Under the pieces are notes generated by a model. That model had not been told where the DNA came from. It made no database searches and saw only the letters and a program-made list of their open reading frames with translations. From an uncultured Solibacteraceae bacterium (GTDB lineage: Bacteria; Acidobacteriota; Terriglobia; 20CM-2-55-15): 43,479 nucleotides of DNA. The translations under genes were made by a program, and so were the position numbers. Below, piece by piece: positions 23,338-35,968 of the stretch; the first letter of the stretch is position 1, and every line of letters begins with the position of its first letter. The stretch is from positions 1 through 43,479 of the forward strand of contig CAZIPZ010000003.1 in the NCBI GenBank assembly GCA_964541075.1, in the 5' to 3' direction.

Positions 23338-24555
23338 ATGAACTACCCCGAGGCTATTTTTATTTCCCTCGCTTCACTCCGGGCCAATCGCCTGCGATCC
23401 CTCCTTACATTGCTCGGCATCGTGATTGGAATCACAACGGTGATCACCGTTGTGTCATTCATTTCGGGACTCAATGACTACGTGGCCGAGAAGGTTTTCA
23501 ATCTGGGTCCAGACGTTTTCGTCGTGAACCGAACACCTTTCGTGACCCTTTCTCTAGAAGATTTCATCGAGGGCCAAAGGCGCAAGAACCTCTACCTCTC
23601 TGACATGGAGGCGATTCGAGAAACATGTACGGAATGCGGGTTGGTGGGCGCGACGGTCAATACAAGATCCCGCGTCAAGTACGGGCGTGAGTTTACAGAT
23701 TCACAAATTCAGGGAAACACCTATGAAATGCCGGCCATTCTTGGCAACGATGTGGAGACGGGTCGACTTCTGAACCAGTACGACGTGGATCATTCGCGAT
23801 ATGTCTGCGTTATCGGCCGGGACGTTGCGGACGTCCTCTTTCCTTACATGGATCCCATAGGAAAGACGCTTTCGGTAAACGACCTTCCGTTTGAAGTGAT
23901 CGGAGTGGGGCTTCGACAGGGTAGCGTCCTCGGTCAATCGCGCGACAACTGGGTCATGATTCCGATTACCGTACATCAGAAAATCTGGGGTATCCGGCGT
24001 TCGGTTCAGATCTACGCCAAGGCCCTCAATGAAACGCATCTCTTGAGAGCCCAGGATCAGGCAAGACTTGTTCTTCGCGTGCGTCGCCACTTGGGCTACA
24101 GCGCGAAGGACGACTTTTCCATTGGAACGAATGACAATTTTTTGTCGCTATGGAGCAACATCAGCCGGGTGTTTTTCGCCGTCACTATCGCCATAGCGTC
24201 CATATCGTTGTTGGTGGGCGGAATTGTCGTTATGAACATCATGCTGGTCTCGGTTACAGAGCGCACCAGGGAGATCGGCATTCGCAAGGCTTTAGGGGCG
24301 CGCCGCAAAGACATACTGATTCAGTTTCTATTGGAGTCTTCAACCCTGTCCTTGGTGGGCGGGATGATCGGAATTGCTCTGGGCGTCGGCATTGCTCTCC
24401 TTGTCTCTTGGTTGACTCCTCTTCCCGCTGCCATCAAATGGTGGGCCGTCACTCTAGGGCTGCTGTTCTCGGGTGGCGTTGGTCTTTTTTTTGGAATATA
24501 TCCGGCCAGCAAGGCTGCAAAACTCGATCCCATCGAGGCTTTACGCTATGAGTGA
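23338..24555 (+). CDS. MacB/FtsX-family ABC transporter permease
   Basis: One N-terminal TM segment, a large periplasmic MacB-like core, and a C-terminal FtsX domain (VMNIMLVSVTERTREIGIRKALGA..IL.QFL.ES), ending in DPIEALRYE. Confidence 0.85.
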   Translation: MNYPEAIFISLASLRANRLRSLLTLLGIVIGITTVITVVSFISGLNDYVAEKVFNLGPDVFVVNRTPFVTLSLEDFIEGQRRKNLYLSDMEAIRETCTECGLVGATVNTRSRVKYGREFTDSQIQGNTYEMPAILGNDVETGRLLNQYDVDHSRYVCVIGRDVADVLFPYMDPIGKTLSVNDLPFEVIGVGLRQGSVLGQSRDNWVMIPITVHQKIWGIRRSVQIYAKALNETHLLRAQDQARLVLRVRRHLGYSAKDDFSIGTNDNFLSLWSNISRVFFAVTIAIASISLLVGGIVVMNIMLVSVTERTREIGIRKALGARRKDILIQFLLESSTLSLVGGMIGIALGVGIALLVSWLTPLPAAIKWWAVTLGLLFSGGVGLFFGIYPASKAAKLDPIEALRYE

Positions 24556-25795
24556 AGCGATCCGTCTGGCCCTGGACTCCTTGCGGAGACACTCACTGCG
24601 ATCGTTTTTGACAGTTCTTGGCGTCGTTATCGGCGTAGCCACAGTCATCGGCATGTCATCTATTATCGCGGGTTTGAATGGAAGCATCGTTTCCCAATTG
24701 GAGGACATCGGATCAAATCTTATCTTCGTCTCGCGCTTTCCGCCCACGGTGGGAGGACGTCTCCCGCCCGAAGTAGTGAACCGGAAAAGGCTCAACCTGG
24801 ACGATGCAAAAGCAATTTCTGAGCTTCCGAACGTCAGAGCTGTAGCTCCAGTGCTCCGCTATTTTTCACCGGCCGCGGATGCATCGTCCTACACGGTTCG
24901 TTATCGTGATCGCTCCGCAAAAAACACGATCATGGAGGGGGTTGTCCCGCAGCAGGAAACTGTCATGAACCTTCGATTGGCCGCGGGGCGCTGGATCACC
25001 GAAGCTGATCACAGGCGTCGGGCAAACGTCGTTGTTCTTGGGTACGATACTGCGGAAACCATATTCCCGGTGTCGGTGGATCCGATAGGAAAAGAGGTTG
25101 AACTCGCCGGCAATGTCTTCACTGTGATCGGCGTCCTGGAGAAACGGCGGGATTCTCTAAATCCCGGCGCCAATCCTAACGACAATGTGGCGGAGATGCC
25201 TGTGGGAACGTTCTGGCGACTCCATCCGGAGCAAAAGGACTTTTGGTTTGCCATAAAACCGGTTTCTCAAGAAACGATGAGTGGAGTGATAGATAACATT
25301 GAACAGATCCTTCGAAGGCGGAGAGGAGTTCCGCTAAATAAAGACAGCGACTTCGCTATTTTCACCCAGAACACATTTACGGATCTATGGAATCAGATTT
25401 CAAGAGGCATTTTTACGGTGATGCTGGGTATTTCTTCGATTGCTCTGCTCGTAAGCGGGGTTGGCGTCATGAACATTATGCTCGTTTCGGTCACTGAGCG
25501 GACCCGCGAGATCGGTATTCGGAAAGCGACAGGTGCGACGAGACGGGACATTCTCATTCAATTTCTCTTTGAGGCCATGACACTCACGGCCGTTGGCGGC
25601 GTTCTAGGCATTGTCGCCGGCGCGAGTTTGACGGCGTTGATACGTCAATTGGTTCCGTTTCTTCCTGCCGCAGTGTCGTTGTTTTGGGTCACGCTGGGTT
25701 TCGTAACCTCGGTCACCGTAGGCCTAATCTTCGGTCTTTATCCAGCCTATCGTGCAGCATCGTTGGATCCGATTGAGGCTCTGCGATACGAATAG
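24548..25795 (+). CDS. MacB/FtsX-family ABC transporter permease (paralogue)
   Basis: Same architecture and the same motifs (VMNIMLVSVTERTREIGIRKATGA, DPIEALRYE). The ATG at 24548 overlaps the upstream stop (ATGAGTGA). Confidence 0.85.
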   Translation: MSEAIRLALDSLRRHSLRSFLTVLGVVIGVATVIGMSSIIAGLNGSIVSQLEDIGSNLIFVSRFPPTVGGRLPPEVVNRKRLNLDDAKAISELPNVRAVAPVLRYFSPAADASSYTVRYRDRSAKNTIMEGVVPQQETVMNLRLAAGRWITEADHRRRANVVVLGYDTAETIFPVSVDPIGKEVELAGNVFTVIGVLEKRRDSLNPGANPNDNVAEMPVGTFWRLHPEQKDFWFAIKPVSQETMSGVIDNIEQILRRRRGVPLNKDSDFAIFTQNTFTDLWNQISRGIFTVMLGISSIALLVSGVGVMNIMLVSVTERTREIGIRKATGATRRDILIQFLFEAMTLTAVGGVLGIVAGASLTALIRQLVPFLPAAVSLFWVTLGFVTSVTVGLIFGLYPAYRAASLDPIEALRYE

Positions 25796-25804
25796 CATCA
25801 AGCA

Positions 25805-26623
25805 ATGCCGGTCGTGGCGTCGATTCCGACAAGCCTTCGACGGTATCTTCCACTCCTTTCAGTTCGAGAACTCTTAGGTTCTTCGATTGCAATGGGGACC
25901 TTTATGGGTCTTGCAACCTTGCAAACGGCGCAAAGATTGTATCGAGACTGCGGATTGAAAGCTGTTGTCGTCGTAGTGCTGAAGAAGGTGATCAGTCCAT
26001 TCGCCCAAGCTGGAAGCATCTATTTTATGGAGCGGGACCTGAGAGCAGAAATGCCACCGCTGCGGCCCATTCCGGGCATTGTTGCACGTGAAGGCTCATT
26101 CTCCGATCTTCACTTACTCGATGCTGTCGAAAATGGCGCACTTCTCAAACAGAGGGCGATCCAGCGATTGCAGAAGGGCGACCGGTGGTTCATAGGCGTC
26201 GAAGAGTCCACCGGCAAACTGACTAATTATCGGTGGGCTTCGTTGACGAGTGGTTTTGTTCTTGAACTCGGCCGGACGCTGACTCTGGAGCCAGGCCAAG
26301 CCTATATATACGACCTCCAGACGGCGCCTGAGTTCAGACGGCGCGGTATTGAGGGATTCACGCGTCAGTTCACTTACGATCGGCTCCATCGGCAATACGG
26401 CGCTGATCGCATCACCGTTTACATTTGCGCGGACAATCATGCCAGCCTGCAGGCGGGTCGAGCGTACCTTACGCCTGTCGGCCGCATCTGGTACCTCAAA
26501 GTCCGTGGATTCGCACGCCGCATCTTTATGATTCCGACTGGTCGGACGCCTCGATTGACCGAGGCCTCCGCTGAGTTTCCTCAGGCTGCAGCCTTCGCGC
26601 GACTCTCAAATTCGCGAAGGTAG
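25805..26623 (+). CDS. GNAT-family N-acyltransferase (putative)
   Basis: The C-terminal half has a GNAT motif-A-like segment (YIYDLQTAPEFRRRGIEG). The N-terminal ~90 aa are unassigned and the start is uncertain. The gene begins 9 nt after the permease stop. Confidence 0.5.
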   Translation: MPVVASIPTSLRRYLPLLSVRELLGSSIAMGTFMGLATLQTAQRLYRDCGLKAVVVVVLKKVISPFAQAGSIYFMERDLRAEMPPLRPIPGIVAREGSFSDLHLLDAVENGALLKQRAIQRLQKGDRWFIGVEESTGKLTNYRWASLTSGFVLELGRTLTLEPGQAYIYDLQTAPEFRRRGIEGFTRQFTYDRLHRQYGADRITVYICADNHASLQAGRAYLTPVGRIWYLKVRGFARRIFMIPTGRTPRLTEASAEFPQAAAFARLSNSRR

Positions 26624-27312
26624 GCCAACTCTTCCACCGTAGGTTCCGGGGTTTCATGAACAGGATGGGATAGTTGAAGGGGCCAGCCGGTCGCTTCCTT
26701 GATTTCCTCCACCGTGACTCCAGGATGGCGGCTTACGAGCATGAGTTCTCGTGTCCAAGGATCAGGCGCAAGAACAGCTAGATCCGTTACTACTGCGGTA
26801 ACGCGGTCACCGGGAGTCGTCAGGAAATCGAGAGTGTTTACCATAGCCCTCGGTGAGTGACGAAGAATGACGATCACCTCGCGAGCGTTAGTCGCGATCT
26901 CCGGGGCCCCTCCCGCACCCGGGAGTCGTACACTCGGCCGGAGATAGTCTCCGATTACCGTCGAATTAAGATTGCCGAATCGATCGATCTGCGCGGCGCC
27001 GAGAATGGCCATGTCAATGCGTCCACCCTGCAACCAATAGGTGAACATTTCGGGAATGCTGACGATGAAATCGCAAGTGTTTGTGAGCTCATCAGCCGCA
27101 ATGGAAAGTGGCGCGAAGGAGGGTTTGGCTCCGACGGTTCCCGACTCATATATCAAAATTGATTTCGGCGCATGGTGCTTCCGGGCGATACAACCCGCGA
27201 GTCCCGGCATTCCTACACCTATGAAACACGTTGCTCCATTACGGAATCGCCGTGCCACTTCTATTGTCATCAGTTCTGCTTTTGCGTACCGTCGTTCAAT
27301 TGTGCTCGACAT
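26581..27312 (-). CDS. CoA-transferase subunit B (glutaconate / 3-oxoacid CoA-transferase family I)
   Basis: Typical beta-subunit start (ELMTIEVARRF.NG...FIGVG.P) and a YESG segment carrying the candidate catalytic Glu. Start placed at the ATG at 27312, overlapping the subunit A stop by 17 nt. Confidence 0.8.
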   Translation of the reverse strand: MSSTIERRYAKAELMTIEVARRFRNGATCFIGVGMPGLAGCIARKHHAPKSILIYESGTVGAKPSFAPLSIAADELTNTCDFIVSIPEMFTYWLQGGRIDMAILGAAQIDRFGNLNSTVIGDYLRPSVRLPGAGGAPEIATNAREVIVILRHSPRAMVNTLDFLTTPGDRVTAVVTDLAVLAPDPWTRELMLVSRHPGVTVEEIKEATGWPLQLSHPVHETPEPTVEELAYLREFESRAKAAA

Positions 27313-28174
27313 GTTCTTCAATCCACCGGAGAAAAAGATTGCGGTCCCTGGATATTCCGTCCCACGCCCGGTAAAACGTGTCATCGCGCGGATAGTAACC
27401 TTGTGTATATGAAGGTCTGGCTCCCTGAGGTGCGTGCACGACAGCAGTTACGACCCATGAAGGCAGCACGATGCCGTTAGGCGCAGGTCGAACTGTATCG
27501 CAGATCTCCTCAACCGTAACGATGGATCGCCTTGAGGCAAGAACAGTCTCCTTTTGAATTCCGGTCACTCCCCACAGTGAAACGTTGCCCTCACGATCTG
27601 CCTGTTGGGCGTGAATAATCGCTACATCCGGGCGAATAGCTCGCACGGCCATAATCTCCGCGCCTGTGAAGGGACACTTAATGGGCGCGACTGTTTTGGT
27701 GTGTTTCAAGAGGTCATTGCCGGCATAGCCGATCAAAACGCCAAATGGGAGTCCTGCAGCGCCGGCCGTGATCGCTGCGGCCAGCCCAGCGTGGCTGTGT
27801 TCTTCGATTTCGAGAGGATTTGGCCAGTGGTTTTCAACGGCGTCGCGAAATCGCGGGGACAGCCCCACGCCAGGGTTTCCAGCCCACGAAAAAATCATCT
27901 TTCGCGCACATCCGGCTCCGATCATCTGATCGTAAATGAGATCAGGGGTCAGGCGGATCAGGGTTAAATCGCGCCGTTTCTGTCGAATAATTTCGTGTCC
28001 TGCAGCGAATGGAATCAGGTGGCTGAAACCCTCAGCCGCGATCGAATCGCCGTTATGCACCAGTTCGGTAATTGCTTCTTTAAGAGTACAAATCTCCGCC
28101 ATACCGCCATGCTTTTGCAAGCAGGCTTCCAGGAGTTCCAAAACCCCGGCGCCTAAAGACAACGATTGCGGCAC
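27296..28174 (-). CDS. CoA-transferase subunit A (glutaconate / 3-oxoacid CoA-transferase family I)
   Basis: Alpha-subunit features (LKEAI.ELV.NGDSIA.EGF, AITAGAAGLPF, DVAIIHAQQADREGN). The GTG at 28174 or the ATG at 28102 are possible starts. Confidence 0.8.
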   Translation of the reverse strand: MPQSLSLGAGVLELLEACLQKHGGMAEICTLKEAITELVHNGDSIAAEGFSHLIPFAAGHEIIRQKRRDLTLIRLTPDLIYDQMIGAGCARKMIFSWAGNPGVGLSPRFRDAVENHWPNPLEIEEHSHAGLAAAITAGAAGLPFGVLIGYAGNDLLKHTKTVAPIKCPFTGAEIMAVRAIRPDVAIIHAQQADREGNVSLWGVTGIQKETVLASRRSIVTVEEICDTVRPAPNGIVLPSWVVTAVVHAPQGARPSYTQGYYPRDDTFYRAWDGISRDRNLFLRWIEEHVEHN

Positions 28175-28398: not shown

Positions 28399-30255
28399 GT
28401 GGAAAAGAGCAACGGAACTTCAGATAGCGTTCTTCTGCATCGAAGCATTCCTCGGTTAGTGGAGGATCAGTCTGTCACTCGGCCTGACACAGTAGCGGTT
28501 TTTGCAGGGCCCCTAGTCATAACCTACAAAGAGCTGGTTGATCGAGCCACGATGCTGGCGGGATATCTTCAGGAAAGCGGTGTTCTAACGGACACCGTCG
28601 TCGCCTTATGCATGAAGAGTTCGATCGCCATGGTGGTTGGAGCTCTCGGCGTGTTCAAAGCGGGCGCTGCATATTTGCCTCTGGATCCGTCCTTTCCCGA
28701 AAAACGGCTTTCATACACTCTGGGCGACGCCCAGACGACAATGGTAATCACAACACGGGATGAGGCGCGCAACATTCCTGAGGGTCCTTGGAAAATCGTC
28801 GAGCTCGATGAAAGAGGCGTTCTTCTAAACTCCAGAGGCGCAACGCCGAAAGCCGCGAACATTAAAGAGAATGATCTTGCCTACGTCATCTACACCTCCG
28901 GTTCCACCGGCCAGCCGAAGGGTGTGGAAGTCACCCATGGCAATTTGAGGAACCTGCTGAGCTGGCACCAGGCCGCTTTTTCGACAACGGCCGCAGATCG
29001 GGCGACGCTTATTGCAGGCGTCGCCTTCGATGCTGCGGTGTGGGAATTGTGGCCGTATTTGACAGTTGGGGCCAGCCTGCACGTTCCCTCGGAAGCCGTG
29101 CGCACCGACCCGGAGGCAATGCGAAATTGGCTTGTCGACCAGAAAATCACGATCAGCTTTCTACCGACCGCGATGGCTGAACGCGTCATGAGGCTCGAGT
29201 GGCCGCCGGATACGGCTCTCAGAACGTTACTCACCGGCGCCGACACGCTGCATCAGTATCCAACGTGCGCACTGCCGTTTGTTCTTGTGAACAACTACGG
29301 ACCAACCGAGTGCACAGTTGTTGCGACGTCTGGGGTGGTGTCATGCGTGGAAAAATTCACTGAGTTGCCCAGTATCGGCCGGCCTATCACAAACTCACGG
29401 GTCTATATACTTGATGAACAACAGAATCCAGCGCCCGCGGGCGAGCCCGGAGAACTCTATGTAGCCGGACGCAACGTGGCTCGCGGGTATCGGAATCATC
29501 CGGAGCTCTCCGCAGCAAAGTTCCTTCACGATCCCTTTGTGGACGGCGACCGCATGTATAGGACCGGGGATCTGGGGCGTTACACAAGCGACGGCCAAAT
29601 CGCTTTTCTCGGGCGGATTGATGATCAGATCAAACTTCGCGGTTATCGCATCGAACCAAATGAGGTCGTTGGCGTTCTGAATCAGCACCCGGGTATCTCA
29701 GAAAGCGCGCTGGTTGCGCAGACATTTTCCGGTGATGAAAAAAGGCTCGTGGCCTATGTCGTTCCGGAATCCACATCAGTACTTGAAAGTGACGGCATCC
29801 TGGAGTTTCTGCGGACGAGACTTCCCGATTACATGACACCCTCGGCTTTTGTGCTGTTGGACCAACTGCCTCTGACGCACAGCGGAAAGCTCGACCGCGC
29901 CGCGCTTCCGGAGCCAAGCCCCGGGAATACGCTCGGAAGCAAATCGTGTGTCGGCCCGCAGTCTCCTGTAGAGGAGCGCATGGCGCTTCTTCTAGCGGAG
30001 CTTCTGGATGTAGACCGAATCGCGATGAACGACAACTTCTTCCATCTTGGCGGCCATTCTTTGCTGGGAGCGCAACTGATCGCCCGGATTCGGGATGTGT
30101 TTGGAGTGGAGGTTTCACTGCGAACGCTTTTTGACAATCCTACAGTTGAAGGAATTTCCGCTCAGATCGAGGAACTCATTCTTGAAATGTTGGAAGAGTT
30201 CAGTCCGATTGAGGGACAAGGCATTTTGGCTAGCGAAGGCAGACCTGCGGCGTAA
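28399..30255 (+). CDS. stand-alone NRPS adenylation-thiolation (A-T) didomain protein, predicted Leu-activating
   Basis: All ten A-domain core motifs are readable: TYKEL, FKAGAAYLPLDP, LAYVIYTSGSTGQPKGV, FDAAVWE, NNYGPTE, GELYVAGRNVARGY, YRTGDL, GRIDDQIKLRGYRIE, LPDYMTP, SGKLDR. The carrier-protein motif FFHLGGHSLL follows. AAGGAG lies 9 nt upstream of the GTG. No C, E or TE domain. Confidence 0.9.
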   Translation: MEKSNGTSDSVLLHRSIPRLVEDQSVTRPDTVAVFAGPLVITYKELVDRATMLAGYLQESGVLTDTVVALCMKSSIAMVVGALGVFKAGAAYLPLDPSFPEKRLSYTLGDAQTTMVITTRDEARNIPEGPWKIVELDERGVLLNSRGATPKAANIKENDLAYVIYTSGSTGQPKGVEVTHGNLRNLLSWHQAAFSTTAADRATLIAGVAFDAAVWELWPYLTVGASLHVPSEAVRTDPEAMRNWLVDQKITISFLPTAMAERVMRLEWPPDTALRTLLTGADTLHQYPTCALPFVLVNNYGPTECTVVATSGVVSCVEKFTELPSIGRPITNSRVYILDEQQNPAPAGEPGELYVAGRNVARGYRNHPELSAAKFLHDPFVDGDRMYRTGDLGRYTSDGQIAFLGRIDDQIKLRGYRIEPNEVVGVLNQHPGISESALVAQTFSGDEKRLVAYVVPESTSVLESDGILEFLRTRLPDYMTPSAFVLLDQLPLTHSGKLDRAALPEPSPGNTLGSKSCVGPQSPVEERMALLLAELLDVDRIAMNDNFFHLGGHSLLGAQLIARIRDVFGVEVSLRTLFDNPTVEGISAQIEELILEMLEEFSPIEGQGILASEGRPAA

Positions 30256-30285
30256 GTCCGCATCGAGACGCAAGAGAGGAGACAG

Positions 30286-31530
30286 ATGGGCGTTCAAGAC
30301 GTTAAAGAGGTCGTCAGTCCGCCACCGAGTTTGTATCACCTAATCGATCCCGAAGTACTGGCGAATCCTTACCCCTTGTACCACCGGCTGCGGTCCGAGC
30401 GCCCTGTGCACTGGGATCCGTTTCTCCATTCCTGGGTGGTGACACGTTACGTGGATGTTGTGCGTGTTTTGCACCACTTCAGCGCCGATCGAACTCCGAC
30501 TCCCGATCAACTGACCGCCAAGGGACTCTCCGAACTGAATCCGATCGCCCAAGTTATGGTGCGTCAGATGTTGTTCATGGACGCTCCAGACCATACGCGG
30601 CTGCGCGCTCTGGCGCAGGCGGCTTTTACATGTGGGCGCGTCGAGCGTCTTCGTTCTCACATTCAGGAGATTGCTGATGGATTGCTCAGCAAGGTGATCG
30701 CATCCGGCCGCATGGATGTCATTTCGGACTTTGCAAGTCCGCTGCCGGCAATCGTGACTGCCGAAATGCTGGGAGTTCCCACCAAGGATCATGCCCAGCT
30801 GAAAGCGTGGTCCGCGGACTTCGCTGAGATGCTCGGAAACTTTCAGCACAATCCGGGCCGGATCGCACGCGTGCTGGAAAGTGTCGAGGCAATGACGTCC
30901 TATTTTCGATCGGCCATGCGGGAGCAACGGGAGCACCCGCGGGACGGCCTGATAACCGCCATGATGAATGCGGAAGTTAACGGAGCCCGGCTGACTGAAG
31001 AGGAAATCGTCGCGAACATTATCGTCACCATGGTCGGAGGTCAGGAGACGACAACGAACTTGATCGGAAACGGCATTCTTTCGCTGCTGTGCAATCCTCA
31101 TCAGCTTGAGAAGCTGCGAAACGACTCGTCCCTCATCCCATCCGGAATCGAAGAGCTTCTTCGCTACGAAAGCCCAAGCCAACACACTGCTCGCATTGCT
31201 CCGGACAATGTCGAGATGGGAGGCCAACGCATCAAGAAAGGACAAGCGGTAGTCGCCGTGATGGCCGCAGCAAATCGCGACCCAGAGCGCTTCCCCGATC
31301 CCGACCGTCTCGATGTCGAACGTAAGGACAATCGACATGTCGCTTTCGGATGGGCCGCGCACTTCTGCTTTGGGGCTCCGCTGGCTCGTCTTGAGGGTCA
31401 GATTTCATTCGAGACCATTTTGCGGAGGCTGCCGAATTTGGCGCTTGATGCCTCAAAGCCGGTCGTCTGGCGCCACAACCTCGGCCTCCGGGGCCTGAAC
31501 GCCCTTCATGTGACATTTGGGAACGGATAA
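30286..31530 (+). CDS. cytochrome P450
   Basis: I-helix GGQETTTN, K-helix EELLRYESP (ExxR), and the Cys-ligand loop FGWAAHFCFGAPLAR. It starts 30 nt after the A-T stop and is preceded by GAGAGGAG. Confidence 0.92.
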   Translation: MGVQDVKEVVSPPPSLYHLIDPEVLANPYPLYHRLRSERPVHWDPFLHSWVVTRYVDVVRVLHHFSADRTPTPDQLTAKGLSELNPIAQVMVRQMLFMDAPDHTRLRALAQAAFTCGRVERLRSHIQEIADGLLSKVIASGRMDVISDFASPLPAIVTAEMLGVPTKDHAQLKAWSADFAEMLGNFQHNPGRIARVLESVEAMTSYFRSAMREQREHPRDGLITAMMNAEVNGARLTEEEIVANIIVTMVGGQETTTNLIGNGILSLLCNPHQLEKLRNDSSLIPSGIEELLRYESPSQHTARIAPDNVEMGGQRIKKGQAVVAVMAAANRDPERFPDPDRLDVERKDNRHVAFGWAAHFCFGAPLARLEGQISFETILRRLPNLALDASKPVVWRHNLGLRGLNALHVTFGNG

Positions 31531-31710
31531 ATGATTCAGACGGAGGCTTCTTCCAGTTCCGCTTCCAGGCGCGCTCTCCTGGAAAAGTCCCTCCAGGCGA
31601 ATAACAAGAAAAAAACTGAAAGGCGCACAGCCAATCCTCCCCGGTCGAGTGGCGATCCAGCGCCCGGTGAGGAAGTCCAAATGCAGCCTGAACAGCAGAA
31701 TTTCGTCTAA
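31531..31710 (+). CDS. 59-aa hydrophilic ORF, start abutting the P450 stop (uncertain coding status)
   Basis: TAAATG junction with the P450. My hand translation is MIQTEASSSSASRRALLEKSLQANNKKKTERRTANPPRSSGDPAPGEEVQMQPEQQNFV. It falls just below the 60-aa cutoff of the supplied ORF track. Confidence 0.3.
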   Translation: MIQTEASSSSASRRALLEKSLQANNKKKTERRTANPPRSSGDPAPGEEVQMQPEQQNFV

Positions 31711-31721
31711 CGGAGGCAAAA

Positions 31722-32006
31722 ATGGATTTCGACATCTTTAAGGGCAAATGGAAACAGATGAAGGGAGATCTGAAGGCCAAGTGGGGCCAGATCACTGACG
31801 ACGAATGGACTGAGATTAACGGTGATCGCGACAAGTTGATCGGCCGGCTTCAGGAAAGGTATGGTCGCGCGAAAGATGATGTCCGGACTGAGGTGGACGA
31901 CTTTTTCAGGAACATCGATCTCACCCGCCGGGACCGAACCGGCGTTGACGACATCAGTGGCGAGGAAAGGACTCCCAAACCCGGCCGCGATCGCAAGGTA
32001 TCCTAG
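31722..32006 (+). CDS. CsbD-family stress-response protein
   Basis: GKWKQMKGDLKAKWGQITDDEWTEINGDRDKLIGRLQERYG is the CsbD signature. GGAGG lies 5 nt upstream of the ATG. Confidence 0.8.
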   Translation: MDFDIFKGKWKQMKGDLKAKWGQITDDEWTEINGDRDKLIGRLQERYGRAKDDVRTEVDDFFRNIDLTRRDRTGVDDISGEERTPKPGRDRKVS

Positions 32007-33892: not shown

Positions 33893-35968
33893 GTGGGGTC
33901 CATGTCTGTTGTAGTTACCGACACCGATCAACTCGTTCAGTTCCTTAAGAACGTCAAACTCTTCGCTGAACTGGGTTCCGACAGCCTTACGAAACTGGGG
34001 GCATGCCTTAAGACCGCAGAATTTCCACCAGCCGAGGTCATCGTGCGTGAAGGCGCCCCCGGAGTTTCGATGTACATCATCAAGGCGGGGCTGGTCGAGG
34101 TGCGCAAAAAGGATCCCGCCACTGGTATTGATTTTCTAGTCGCCCAGCTGTCCGAAGGCGCCGCAGTAGGCGAAATGTCGCTCCTTACGGGTAAACCCCG
34201 ATCCGCCACCGTTACGACAGTGCAGCCCACGGTGGTATTCACCCTGACACGCGCCGATTTCAGAAACCTGTTAACGCAGCATCCCGAAATTTCTCTTGGA
34301 TTGGCTCGCATTCTCGCTGAACGATTAGAAGATGCGACAAAGCAGGTGGGTATCGAGTATGTCAACCTCTTCAAAGGTAAGTTCGATCCCCGTGTGGTCG
34401 GCCTGCTTCCACAAGCGCTATGCACTCTCCATAAGGTCGTACCGATCGCCTATGTGAACAACTCCGTCACGCTGGCAATGGTGAATCCTTCTAATTTGGT
34501 TGCGTTCGACGACGTGCGCCGTTACATCAAGGGCGTCATTATCGAGCCGCAGGTCTGTACGGAAGAAGATTTCCGGAAGTTCATGGACACGATTTATCCG
34601 GACCTCATGGGCCTTAAGGAAGAGAAGAAGGAACCAGACAAACGTAAGGAGGAGGCTGAGCGAAAAAAGGAGGACAAAAAAGCCAGGAGCCCTGACGTGC
34701 CTCAGCAGAGCCTGGAGGACCTGCAGGCGGAGATCCTCGGTGGAATGGAGGTTCAGAGCGAAGAAGAAGACAAACCGACAACGGTTGAACTAGCGACGGC
34801 CTCAGAAGACGCACCCGTTGTGCGGCTAGCCAACAACATCCTCGCCTTGGCCATTAAGAAGGGCGCCAGCGACATTCACATCGAGCCGCAGGAAAAAGGC
34901 GTCGTACTGCGGCTGCGCATTGACGGCATATTGCATGTCGAGAATGTTCTTTCCAAGAAGATTCAATTGCCGCTCGCTTCGCGCTTCAAAATTTTGTCGC
35001 GATTGGACATTTCGGAACGCCGCCTTCCGCAGGACGGCCGTATTTCGATTCGCATCGATGATCGGGCCATTGACTTTCGCGTTTCGACCGTGCCCGCAAA
35101 GTTCGGTGAAAAGATCGTTATGCGCGTTTTGGACAAGAGCGGCGCGTTGCTGCCTTTGGACAAGATCATCGTCCATACTCCAACCGTCGAAAAACTGCGA
35201 TGGATGATTAGTCAGCCCTACGGCATTATCTATGTCACAGGCCCGACGGGTTCCGGTAAAACCACCACCCTGTACAGTTCGCTGAGCGAAATCAACTCAC
35301 CCGAAGTCAACATTTCCACAGCCGAAGATCCGATTGAATACGACCTTGCCGGCCTCTGCCAAGTGCAAACACATAAGGACATCGGTCTTGATTTCGCACG
35401 GATTCTTCGCGCCTTTCTGCGCCAAGACCCGGATGTGATCCTTGTCGGTGAAACACGTGACCAGGAAACCGCAAAAATATCCGTCGAGGCGGCACTGACC
35501 GGCCACCTGGTATTTACAACGCTTCACACGAACGACGCTCCGGGATCATTCACGCGTCTGGAGGAAATGGGCATTGAACCATTCCTGATGGCGAACTCCA
35601 CCATCGGCATCATCGCTCAACGTCTCGCCCGCAGGTTGTGCCAGAACTGCAAAGTGCAGACCGAGGTAGACGACACGACATTGGGATACTTCGGCTACGC
35701 AAGAGAAACAGCGCCGCCCTTCTACAAGGGTGAAGGTTGCGACAAATGCAATCGGACGGGAAAGAAAGGCCGCGTTGGAATCTACGAATTGCTCCTGATG
35801 ACCGATGACCTCCGACGCATCGTCGCCTCAGGGGCCAAAACGGACGAGATCAGGGACGCTGCTCGCAAAGCTGGAATGAAGACGTTGAAAGAGTACGCGA
35901 TGATTCTGATGTCGGAAGGTTTGACCGATGTCGAAGAAGTTCTGAGCAATCTCGTCGTTTCGAACTGA
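33893..35968 (+). CDS. PilB/GspE-family secretion/pilus-assembly ATPase with N-terminal cyclic-nucleotide-binding domain
   Basis: - aa ~15-140: a CAP-type cNMP-binding domain with an intact phosphate-binding cassette (VGEMSLLTGKPRSATV).
- aa ~150-235: a T2SSE_N-like segment.
- Then a Lys/Glu-rich linker.
- Then the ATPase core: IHIEP, Walker A GPTGSGKTTT, Asp box, Walker B DPDVILVGETRD, His box TGHLVFTTLHTN, and the tetra-Cys motif CQNC..CDKC. Confidence 0.88.
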   Translation: MGSMSVVVTDTDQLVQFLKNVKLFAELGSDSLTKLGACLKTAEFPPAEVIVREGAPGVSMYIIKAGLVEVRKKDPATGIDFLVAQLSEGAAVGEMSLLTGKPRSATVTTVQPTVVFTLTRADFRNLLTQHPEISLGLARILAERLEDATKQVGIEYVNLFKGKFDPRVVGLLPQALCTLHKVVPIAYVNNSVTLAMVNPSNLVAFDDVRRYIKGVIIEPQVCTEEDFRKFMDTIYPDLMGLKEEKKEPDKRKEEAERKKEDKKARSPDVPQQSLEDLQAEILGGMEVQSEEEDKPTTVELATASEDAPVVRLANNILALAIKKGASDIHIEPQEKGVVLRLRIDGILHVENVLSKKIQLPLASRFKILSRLDISERRLPQDGRISIRIDDRAIDFRVSTVPAKFGEKIVMRVLDKSGALLPLDKIIVHTPTVEKLRWMISQPYGIIYVTGPTGSGKTTTLYSSLSEINSPEVNISTAEDPIEYDLAGLCQVQTHKDIGLDFARILRAFLRQDPDVILVGETRDQETAKISVEAALTGHLVFTTLHTNDAPGSFTRLEEMGIEPFLMANSTIGIIAQRLARRLCQNCKVQTEVDDTTLGYFGYARETAPPFYKGEGCDKCNRTGKKGRVGIYELLLMTDDLRRIVASGAKTDEIRDAARKAGMKTLKEYAMILMSEGLTDVEEVLSNLVVSN

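Follow-up and report, generated by a model that had tools for sequence, protein, structure and literature searches.

A gene for a protein made only of an adenylation (A) domain and a carrier (T) domain, followed by a gene for a cytochrome P450 (P450), raises the question of whether such a pair is a self-contained route to an oxidised amino acid or what is left of a longer pathway. We addressed this question for one such pair in a stretch of 43,479 nt from an uncultured Solibacteraceae bacterium (GenBank assembly GCA_964541075.1, contig CAZIPZ010000003.1, positions 1 to 43,479; hereafter the window). A preliminary description, made from the sequence alone, had taken the pair for a minimal cassette that hydroxylates carrier-tethered leucine, with no assembly line. 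Our analysis indicates instead that the locus is, with good probability, the surviving 5′ part of an NRPS (nonribosomal peptide synthetase) operon conserved in Terriglobia-type Acidobacteriota, truncated by a deletion of about 5.6 kb. The notion of a cassette without an assembly line did not hold, since a gene with a condensation (C) domain follows the P450 gene in 83 of 89 informative homologous loci and in all six close relatives, and the window keeps a remnant of it. The genes that carry the argument are as follows.

28399..30255, + strand: stand-alone A-T protein of 618 residues, GTG start, assigned by open reading frame (ORF) call, Pfam, TIGR01733 and specificity code; A domain at about residues 22–497, T domain at 531–588, phosphopantetheine Ser554 at codon 30058–30060
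30286..31530, + strand: P450 of 414 residues, ATG start, assigned by ORF call and Pfam p450 (E 4e-27); heme Cys361 at codon 31366–31368, I-helix GGQETT, EELLR, heme loop FGWAAHFCFG
31531..31710, + strand: remnant of a gene for a C-A-T-thioesterase (C-A-T-TE) protein, 59 codons plus a stop codon, MIQTEASSSSASRRALLEKSLQANNKKKTERRTANPPRSSGDPAPGEEVQMQPEQQNFV, assigned by DNA alignment, translation and profile
31722..32006, + strand: csbD-like gene, assigned by Pfam CsbD; right flank of the deletion

The P450 gene is followed by the remnant of a condensation-domain gene

No C, TE or phosphopantetheinyl transferase (PPTase) gene was found in the whole window by tblastn with the relatives' C, C-T-TE, C-A-T-TE, T-TE and PPTase proteins as queries, and by Pfam the large ORFs on both flanks encode housekeeping proteins; to this extent the preliminary description was correct. 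Beyond the A-T gene itself, the tblastn search returned one weak match (E 0.82) at positions 31576–31749, which led us to the remnant. A DNA alignment with the relatives (alignment A1) showed that the match runs on past the P450 stop codon into the 191-nt interval, which encodes MIQTEASSSSASRRALLEKSLQAN..., aligned with MLIQPGTPPISAAKRALLEKYLQNK... of the relative L088. When a profile of the first 65 residues of the C-A-T-TE proteins of five relatives was compared with 1235 six-frame segments of the window, a single significant match was obtained, at 31531–31707 (E 1.2e-6), which covers roughly 50 residues from the N-terminus of the C-A-T-TE protein. The remnant starts directly after the P450 stop codon, which is the start site of the intact gene in the relatives; its homology fades at codons 45–53, and its stop lies at codon 60. 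Codons 45–53 are the predicted left breakpoint of the deletion.

On the other side, csbD starts 11 nt after the remnant ORF and 191 nt after the P450 stop. In a longer ENA contig of the relative L006, the contig that carries P0006, the PPTase gene is followed by an NHL-repeat gene and then by a CsbD gene. The C-A-T-TE start and the csbD start are 5773 nt apart in this contig versus 191 nt in the window, from which the size of the deletion was estimated. In the lineage of the window, the deletion would have begun near codon 50 of the C-A-T-TE gene and taken out the operon up to and including the PPTase gene, probably together with the NHL-repeat neighbour; the new junction would lie 11 nt upstream of csbD. 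Because the C-A-T-TE remnant adjoins the P450 gene, the pair presumably once had an assembly line. The interval after the P450 gene is not empty but holds the condensation-domain remnant, which the preliminary description had overlooked, and what that description called missing context is explained by the deletion of the rest of the operon.

Several points speak against this reading of the locus. The comparison of the right flank uses a single relative's contig, for which Pfam labels but no DNA were available, and an exact search for the deletion junction in Joint Genome Institute (JGI) metagenome contigs gave no match. The window is a single metagenome contig, and the junction may reflect a misassembly or a minority strain variant. 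A literature search for a characterised A-T/P450 cassette from Acidobacteria found none, nor any biochemical data on a member. Near the junction, a repeat scan revealed no repeat accounting for the deletion, and promoter and terminator scans gave nothing above chance.

The window retains, in operon order, an A(Leu)-T gene and then a P450 gene of the family, which is at least 62% identical in every locus compared. At or after the P450 stop there is no complete C-domain gene in the window; the remnant of 59 codons stands alone. The window is a truncated derivative of the operon, not an intact member of it.

The operon is conserved in related Acidobacteriota

A genome scan with one genome per species gave at least 580 matching stretches, from which the best 80 were kept. 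The P450 is 69–80% identical in these best 80 of at least 580 stretches and 62–80% identical over all loci compared. Almost all of the loci kept come from Acidobacteriota (Terriglobales, Acidobacteriaceae, Sulfotelmatobacter and Bryobacterales); the few others are from Rokubacteria/Methylomirabilota and one Verrucomicrobiota bin. Gene order was counted in a domain-query search of all fetched loci, those with enough downstream sequence being taken as informative. In 86 of 91 loci the gene directly upstream of the P450 gene is that of the A-T protein, and the C-domain gene starts no more than 700 nt after the P450 gene in the 83 informative loci given above. The downstream continuation varies, being C-A-T-TE, C plus C-A-T..., or C plus an A-less C-T-TE. 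The codes of the downstream A domains vary as well (Gly-like DILQ-GLIWK, Ser-like DVWHISLVDK, Thr-like DFWNIGMVHK, Val-like DAFWLGGTFK and β-amino-acid-like VDWVSSIADK), and some loci are without any second A domain downstream of the P450.

In the close relatives L005, L006, L088, L089, L090 and L093, a long gene starts at or overlaps the P450 stop (six of six), and where its sequence is complete (L006 and L090) it encodes a C-A-T-TE protein of 1340–1343 residues. The operon of L006, the closest of the syntenic relatives with a complete sequence and the same locus as L008 (Acidobacteria metagenome-assembled genome (MAG) nzgw67, contig JAHFTY010000128.1), reads A(Leu)-T, P450, C-A-T-TE (1340 residues, with a Gly-like second code) and PPTase; the PPTase gene was seen in L006. 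The synteny extends to the left flank, where the window carries the following genes.

26581..28174, − strand: two overlapping coenzyme A (CoA)-transferase subunit genes (27296–28174 and 26581–27384), assigned by Pfam CoA_trans; divergent from the A-T gene
25805..26623, + strand: conserved hypothetical protein of 272 residues, left-flank synteny marker; 52% identical to the 238-residue ORF in L005 and L006

The two CoA-transferase genes, which probably lie outside the pathway, are common to five of the six close relatives (L005, L006, L088, L089 and L090, not L093) at 70–84% identity. At the position equivalent to the 272-residue protein, which has no match in Pfam, NCBIfam or PDB, L005, L006 and L088 carry a hypothetical protein of 238 residues and L090 an ORF of 203 residues. 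The five syntenic relatives share the Leu code with the window. The preliminary description had allowed that homologous loci lying always inside a full NRPS cluster would make the pair only a fragment, and this is essentially what the synteny comparison found.

In the C domain after the P450, the active-site motif departs from the canonical form. It reads SHIIFDG in the window's closest relatives (L006:8408–9850 and L090:11247–12700) and HQxxxDG, with the second His replaced by Gln, in L001:13311–14750 and in all four stand-alone C proteins of about 495 residues examined (L002:13202–14701, L004:13254–14753, L007:13304–14791 and L090:190–1656). The second C domain, that of the C-T-TE proteins, has the canonical HHxxxDD. 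The non-canonical motif recalls the C-like domains by which tailoring enzymes are recruited, a likeness that may or may not extend to function. In L002/L003 (5500–21800) and L007 (1–10000 and 21104–21959), an A-T/P450/C plus C-T-TE cassette lies among exopolysaccharide-type genes (Bac_transf, GT2/GT4, Polysacc_deac, DegT aminotransferase, Acetyltransf_6, UDP-glucose dehydrogenase and MBOAT). This setting hints that some variants of the cassette decorate a glycan or lipid rather than making a free peptide.

The A-T protein carries a leucine code

The preliminary description had reported an A-T didomain of 618 residues, with its coordinates, core motifs and GGHSL serine, and all of this was confirmed by ORF calls, Pfam and TIGR01733. 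Pfam placed AMP-binding at residues 22–364 (E 2.6e-75), AMP-binding_C at 426–497 and PP-binding at 531–588, with scores of 254, 44.9 and 55 bits, the respective cut-offs being 29.9, 24.5 and 20.8. The protein also scored above the cut-off of the curated NCBIfam model for the amino acid adenylation domain, TIGR01733 (404.4 versus 317.4 bits). In the translation, the core motifs A3, A5, A7, A8 and A10 are intact (YTSGSTGQPKG, NNYGPTE, YRTGDL, GRIDDQIKLRGYRIE and SGKLDR), and the carrier motif GGHSL is present with Ser554.

The specificity code was extracted at the PheA-equivalent positions 235, 236, 239, 278, 299, 301, 322, 330, 331 and 517, which are residues 211, 212, 215, 254, 278, 280, 299, 307, 308 and 497 of the window protein. 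The ten residues read D-A-W-F-L-G-N-V-V-K, as had been claimed, and this string is the commonest leucine code. Of 79 upstream A-T proteins of the family, 74 share it exactly, and the remaining five differ at one position. The string has been given for Leu domains (PMC12283262, PMC7524897); for laxaphycin/scytocyclamide it occurs in the four predicted Leu-activating domains of one cluster, the products of which contain 3-hydroxyleucine (PMC7524897). Matching the reported Leu code at all ten pocket residues, the A domain of the window is predicted to activate leucine. The family consists of stand-alone A-T proteins of 600–650 residues that are 52–60% identical, and the C-terminal tail of their carrier domain is conserved.

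The two surviving genes show no accelerated change

Pairwise identities gave no sign of acceleration in either surviving protein. With the L005/L090 pair (90% for A-T, 97% for the P450) set aside, the A-T proteins of the five syntenic relatives are 60–65% identical to one another and 58–61% identical to that of the window; for the P450, the orthologues are 78–84% identical among themselves and 79–84% identical to the window protein. In a leave-one-out comparison, the window A-T deviated (V to L) at a single column on which the 75 other sequences all agree, with 23 of these 75 equal or worse, and the window P450 deviated at no otherwise invariant column. A naive conservation test had suggested an excess of change in the window proteins, but its columns had been defined without the window, which biased it; the leave-one-out comparison showed no excess. 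The remnant, by contrast, has lost the conserved residue at three of nine positions (I36N, L47G and S48E) where about 98 homologous N-termini show a conservation of at least 90%, together with Tyr21 (Y21S), a contrast that comprises about a dozen columns, the last of which may lie beyond the breakpoint. These results hint that the A-T and P450 genes remained constrained once the deletion had occurred. Either the survivors still supply a partner from another part of the genome, or their decay has yet to set in.

That the pair still works, passing oxidised leucyl-S-T in trans to a partner encoded elsewhere and relying on a PPTase from elsewhere, is possible, although on balance we doubt it. The candidate partner would be a C-domain protein, a transferase, or a type II thioesterase by which hydroxyleucine is set free. 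Neither gene is shortened or remarkable at family-conserved columns, while the losses in the adjoining remnant suggest that time has passed under a different constraint; a recent deletion, however, would also have left the two ORFs intact, and no partner, PPTase or hydrolase was found within 43 kb. The preliminary description had offered three options, of which the stump of a decayed cluster is borne out by the remnant and the synteny, and a supplier for a distant NRPS is possible for the survivors today, whereas a self-contained route is not supported as the origin of the locus.

Variants of the pair without a C domain bear on the same question. In 10 of about 90 loci, a protein of the following description stands beside the A(Leu)-T/P450 pair.

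L075:6886–7998, L071:1438–2547; also in L012, L031, L055, L061, L064, L067, L074 and L077: protein of about 370 residues

In L071 and L075 it is encoded directly upstream of the pair, no C or TE gene occurs within 10 kb of the pair, and genes for polysaccharide export and glycosyltransferases lie around it. The 370-residue protein has no relative in Pfam, NCBIfam or PDB and no convincing similarity to the 272-residue hypothetical protein of the window; it may serve instead of a C domain as the acceptor or transferase of carrier-bound leucine. L075 and L066 belong to the same MAG (Terriglobales SMAG_U12627), which holds the C-less pair and, on another contig (L066), a complete cassette with C domains. 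From this co-occurrence we infer that the pair is duplicated within genomes, and the duplicated pair may work in trans. The conservation of C-less pairs between two genomes, one of which also has the complete cassette, and the conserved C-terminal tail of the carrier domain thus favour a working pair in the window; the absence of the 370-residue protein from the window argues against it.

A speculative and rather unlikely extension, in line with the C-less pairs conserved in polysaccharide loci (L071 and L075), is that selection has maintained the pair after the loss of its in-cis C-A-T-TE and PPTase, as an independent source of oxidised leucine for a partner encoded elsewhere, such as another NRPS or a glycan- or lipid-decorating transferase. 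Its P450 family would then form a new clade of amino-acid oxidases, very abundant in soil and dependent on carrier proteins, nearer to BioI than to β-hydroxylases of the CYP162/163 type.

The P450 is predicted to act on carrier-bound leucine

The P450 of 414 residues that had been described 30 nt past the A-T gene was confirmed by ORF coordinates and Pfam, and the two genes lie on the same strand. The I-helix acid/alcohol pair, the ExxR motif and the heme Cys are all present, and the intact acid/alcohol pair argues for an oxygenase-type reaction. In a collection of 5.8 billion proteins, the family proved tightly conserved: all 8000 scored candidates had E values of at most 1e-30, and the best 120 were at least 74% identical. 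Such conservation is unusually tight for a secondary-metabolite P450. The heme loop of most P450s is FGxGxHxCxG; across this family (alignment A2) it is invariantly FGWAAHFCFG, with Trp and Ala-Ala in place of the usual residues.

The best solved relative is BioI, whether by sequence (phmmer, E 1.5e-80), by family profile (top hit, E 9e-98) or by fold (Foldseek top hits, 37% identity), and the next best PDB matches by these three routes are PksS and CYP267B1. No curated NCBIfam P450 subfamily was reached, the best being the cyclodipeptide synthase (CDPS)-associated TIGR04538 with 207 bits against a cut-off of 500. The name "pimeloyl-ACP synthase" (ACP, acyl carrier protein), given automatically by JGI to several members, is very likely wrong in view of the 37% identity to BioI, the lack of a biotin context and the aminoacyl partner; Pfam scans found no bio genes among the window ORFs. 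P450s of the same CYP family conventionally share at least 40% identity.

The genomic context supports the action of the P450 on carrier-bound leucine. Its gene sits between the A-T and C genes, and the protein is conserved whatever downstream residue or module follows, which points to the constant leucyl-S-T as the substrate. It is also far more conserved than the A-T protein (about 80% versus about 60%). This part of the preliminary description, a P450 working on carrier-held leucine, thus gains support from the adjacency of the pair in 86 of 91 loci and from a P450 that stays 62–80% identical while the downstream codes vary; β-hydroxylation of leucine is proposed by analogy with P450sky, NikQ, NovI, OxyD and PlyR. 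Other observations count against this assignment. The solved aminoacyl-peptidyl carrier protein (PCP) β-hydroxylases, including P450sky, fell outside the best 60 PDB matches by sequence and profile and the best 50 by fold. The AlphaFold model is mediocre (predicted local distance difference test, pLDDT, 69.6), and the fold search adds little beyond the sequence ranking. Both the substrate and the regiochemistry are predictions, and the released product could be the substrate instead.

It is nevertheless improbable that the P450 ignores carrier-bound leucine and either tailors the released peptide or carries out BioI-like acyl-ACP chemistry. BioI leads the solved matches in all three comparisons, several source annotations carry its name, and gene order alone cannot tell on-line from post-release tailoring. 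Yet the identity to BioI is 37%, biotin genes are absent nearby, the P450 gene lies between the A-T and C genes with the A-T gene directly upstream in nearly every locus, and a P450 conserved despite variable downstream residues suggests a constant leucyl-S-T, not a variable product, as its substrate.

Proposed reactions of the intact system

In the intact system, the A domain would adenylate L-leucine and load it onto Ser554 of the T domain, a step proposed because the Leu code is exact and family-wide. The P450 would then oxidise leucyl-S-T in trans, with β-hydroxylation as the best guess by analogy. The C domain of the next protein would take the modified leucyl group as donor and couple it to a second residue, for which the closest complete relative has a Gly-like code, and the TE would free a short peptide. 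The window would still encode the first two steps only, as it lacks a PPTase, a C domain and a release enzyme of its own. Trans-acting P450 chemistry on NRPS carrier domains has been discussed (PMC8857579, PMC10465960), and carrier-bound P450 chemistry includes dehydrogenation, as in P450Sas (PMC10465960).

It is very hard to credit that the pair has always been a minimal, self-sufficient route to free 3-hydroxyleucine with no need of an assembly line: the A-T gene beside a P450 gene is the layout of NovH/NovI and NikP1/NikQ, PlyR has been proposed to hydroxylate PCP-bound Leu (PMC3943440) and the window holds nothing else NRPS-like, but the C-A-T-TE remnant marks a former assembly line, such a line is present in 83 of 89 homologous loci, and no hydrolase adjoins the pair in the window or lies between the P450 and C genes among the relatives' called genes.

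Other genes of the window

The housekeeping genes of the flanks include those for PolA, LpxC, Obg, GluRS, AccD, Tex, MacB-type permeases, a PilB-like ATPase, FBPase, LpxD, heme genes and PdxJ. One tRNA-Val was found in the window, with no other Rfam hit. Positions 33893–35968 encode a PilB/GspE-type secretion ATPase (T2SSE, MshEN) with an N-terminal cyclic-nucleotide-binding domain, which suggests control of pilus or secretion assembly by cyclic nucleotide monophosphates. At 23338–25795 lie two tandem genes for MacB-like permeases (MacB_PCD + FtsX) that overlap by about 80 nt, and no gene for an ABC ATPase occurs beside them among the neighbouring large ORFs scanned. Fused double MacB permeases are also encoded a few kb from the cassette in L005; a tie to the NRPS locus is not evident.

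Significance and comparison with known systems

An apparently orphan tailoring cassette is here best read as a deletion remnant, and the case calls for caution with isolated NRPS parts from single metagenome contigs. Of wider interest is the uncharacterised A(Leu)-T/P450 starter pair, which opens varied short NRPS lines in soil Acidobacteriota and is represented by thousands of metagenome proteins; together with a possible trans partner of the window pair, it is a more interesting lead than the window locus. To our knowledge, almost no natural products of Acidobacteriota have been characterised, and the intact four-gene operon offers a tractable entry to their NRPS chemistry.

The intact orthologous operons of L005, L006, L088, L089, L090 and L093 are the closest comparison, from which the window differs in keeping about 50 codons of the C-A-T-TE gene and, compared with L006, no PPTase gene. 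Among characterised systems, P450sky of skyllamycin accepts PCP-bound Leu. The intact relatives resemble the skyllamycin system in that a P450 in an NRPS operon is predicted to modify a carrier-held aminoacyl group before the C domain; they differ in that the carrier sits on a separate A-T loading protein, and the role of their P450 is a predicted one. The present layout of the window, an A-T didomain directly followed by a P450, is that of NovH/NovI, NikP1/NikQ and BpsD/OxyD, the systems to which the pair had been likened. The likeness stands for the gene arrangement but is imperfect, as the A-T protein of the relatives is a loading module that serves the C domain directly, without a side branch that has its own hydrolase, and the best solved relatives of the P450 are BioI, PksS and CYP267B1; no thioesterase or hydrolase lies beside the window pair either. 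In polyoxypeptin biosynthesis, PlyR has been proposed to act on PCP-tethered Leu, and discrete thioesterases to release the product for re-activation (PMC3943440). The PCP and TE that accompany PlyR are discrete proteins, whereas the Acidobacteriota pair is without an associated hydrolase.

BioI (CYP107H1; PDB 3EJB, 3EJD and 3EJE, with acyl-ACP) is the closest solved relative of the P450, and it likewise takes its substrate on a carrier protein. It is a pimeloyl-ACP synthase that cleaves a C–C bond of acyl-ACP by multi-step oxidation. The Acidobacteriota P450 differs from it in its identity of 37%, below the conventional 40%, in lacking a biotin-operon context and in a predicted partner that is an aminoacyl-T rather than a fatty acyl-ACP. 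The operon also bears on a possible recruitment of BioI-like P450s to aminoacyl carrier proteins.

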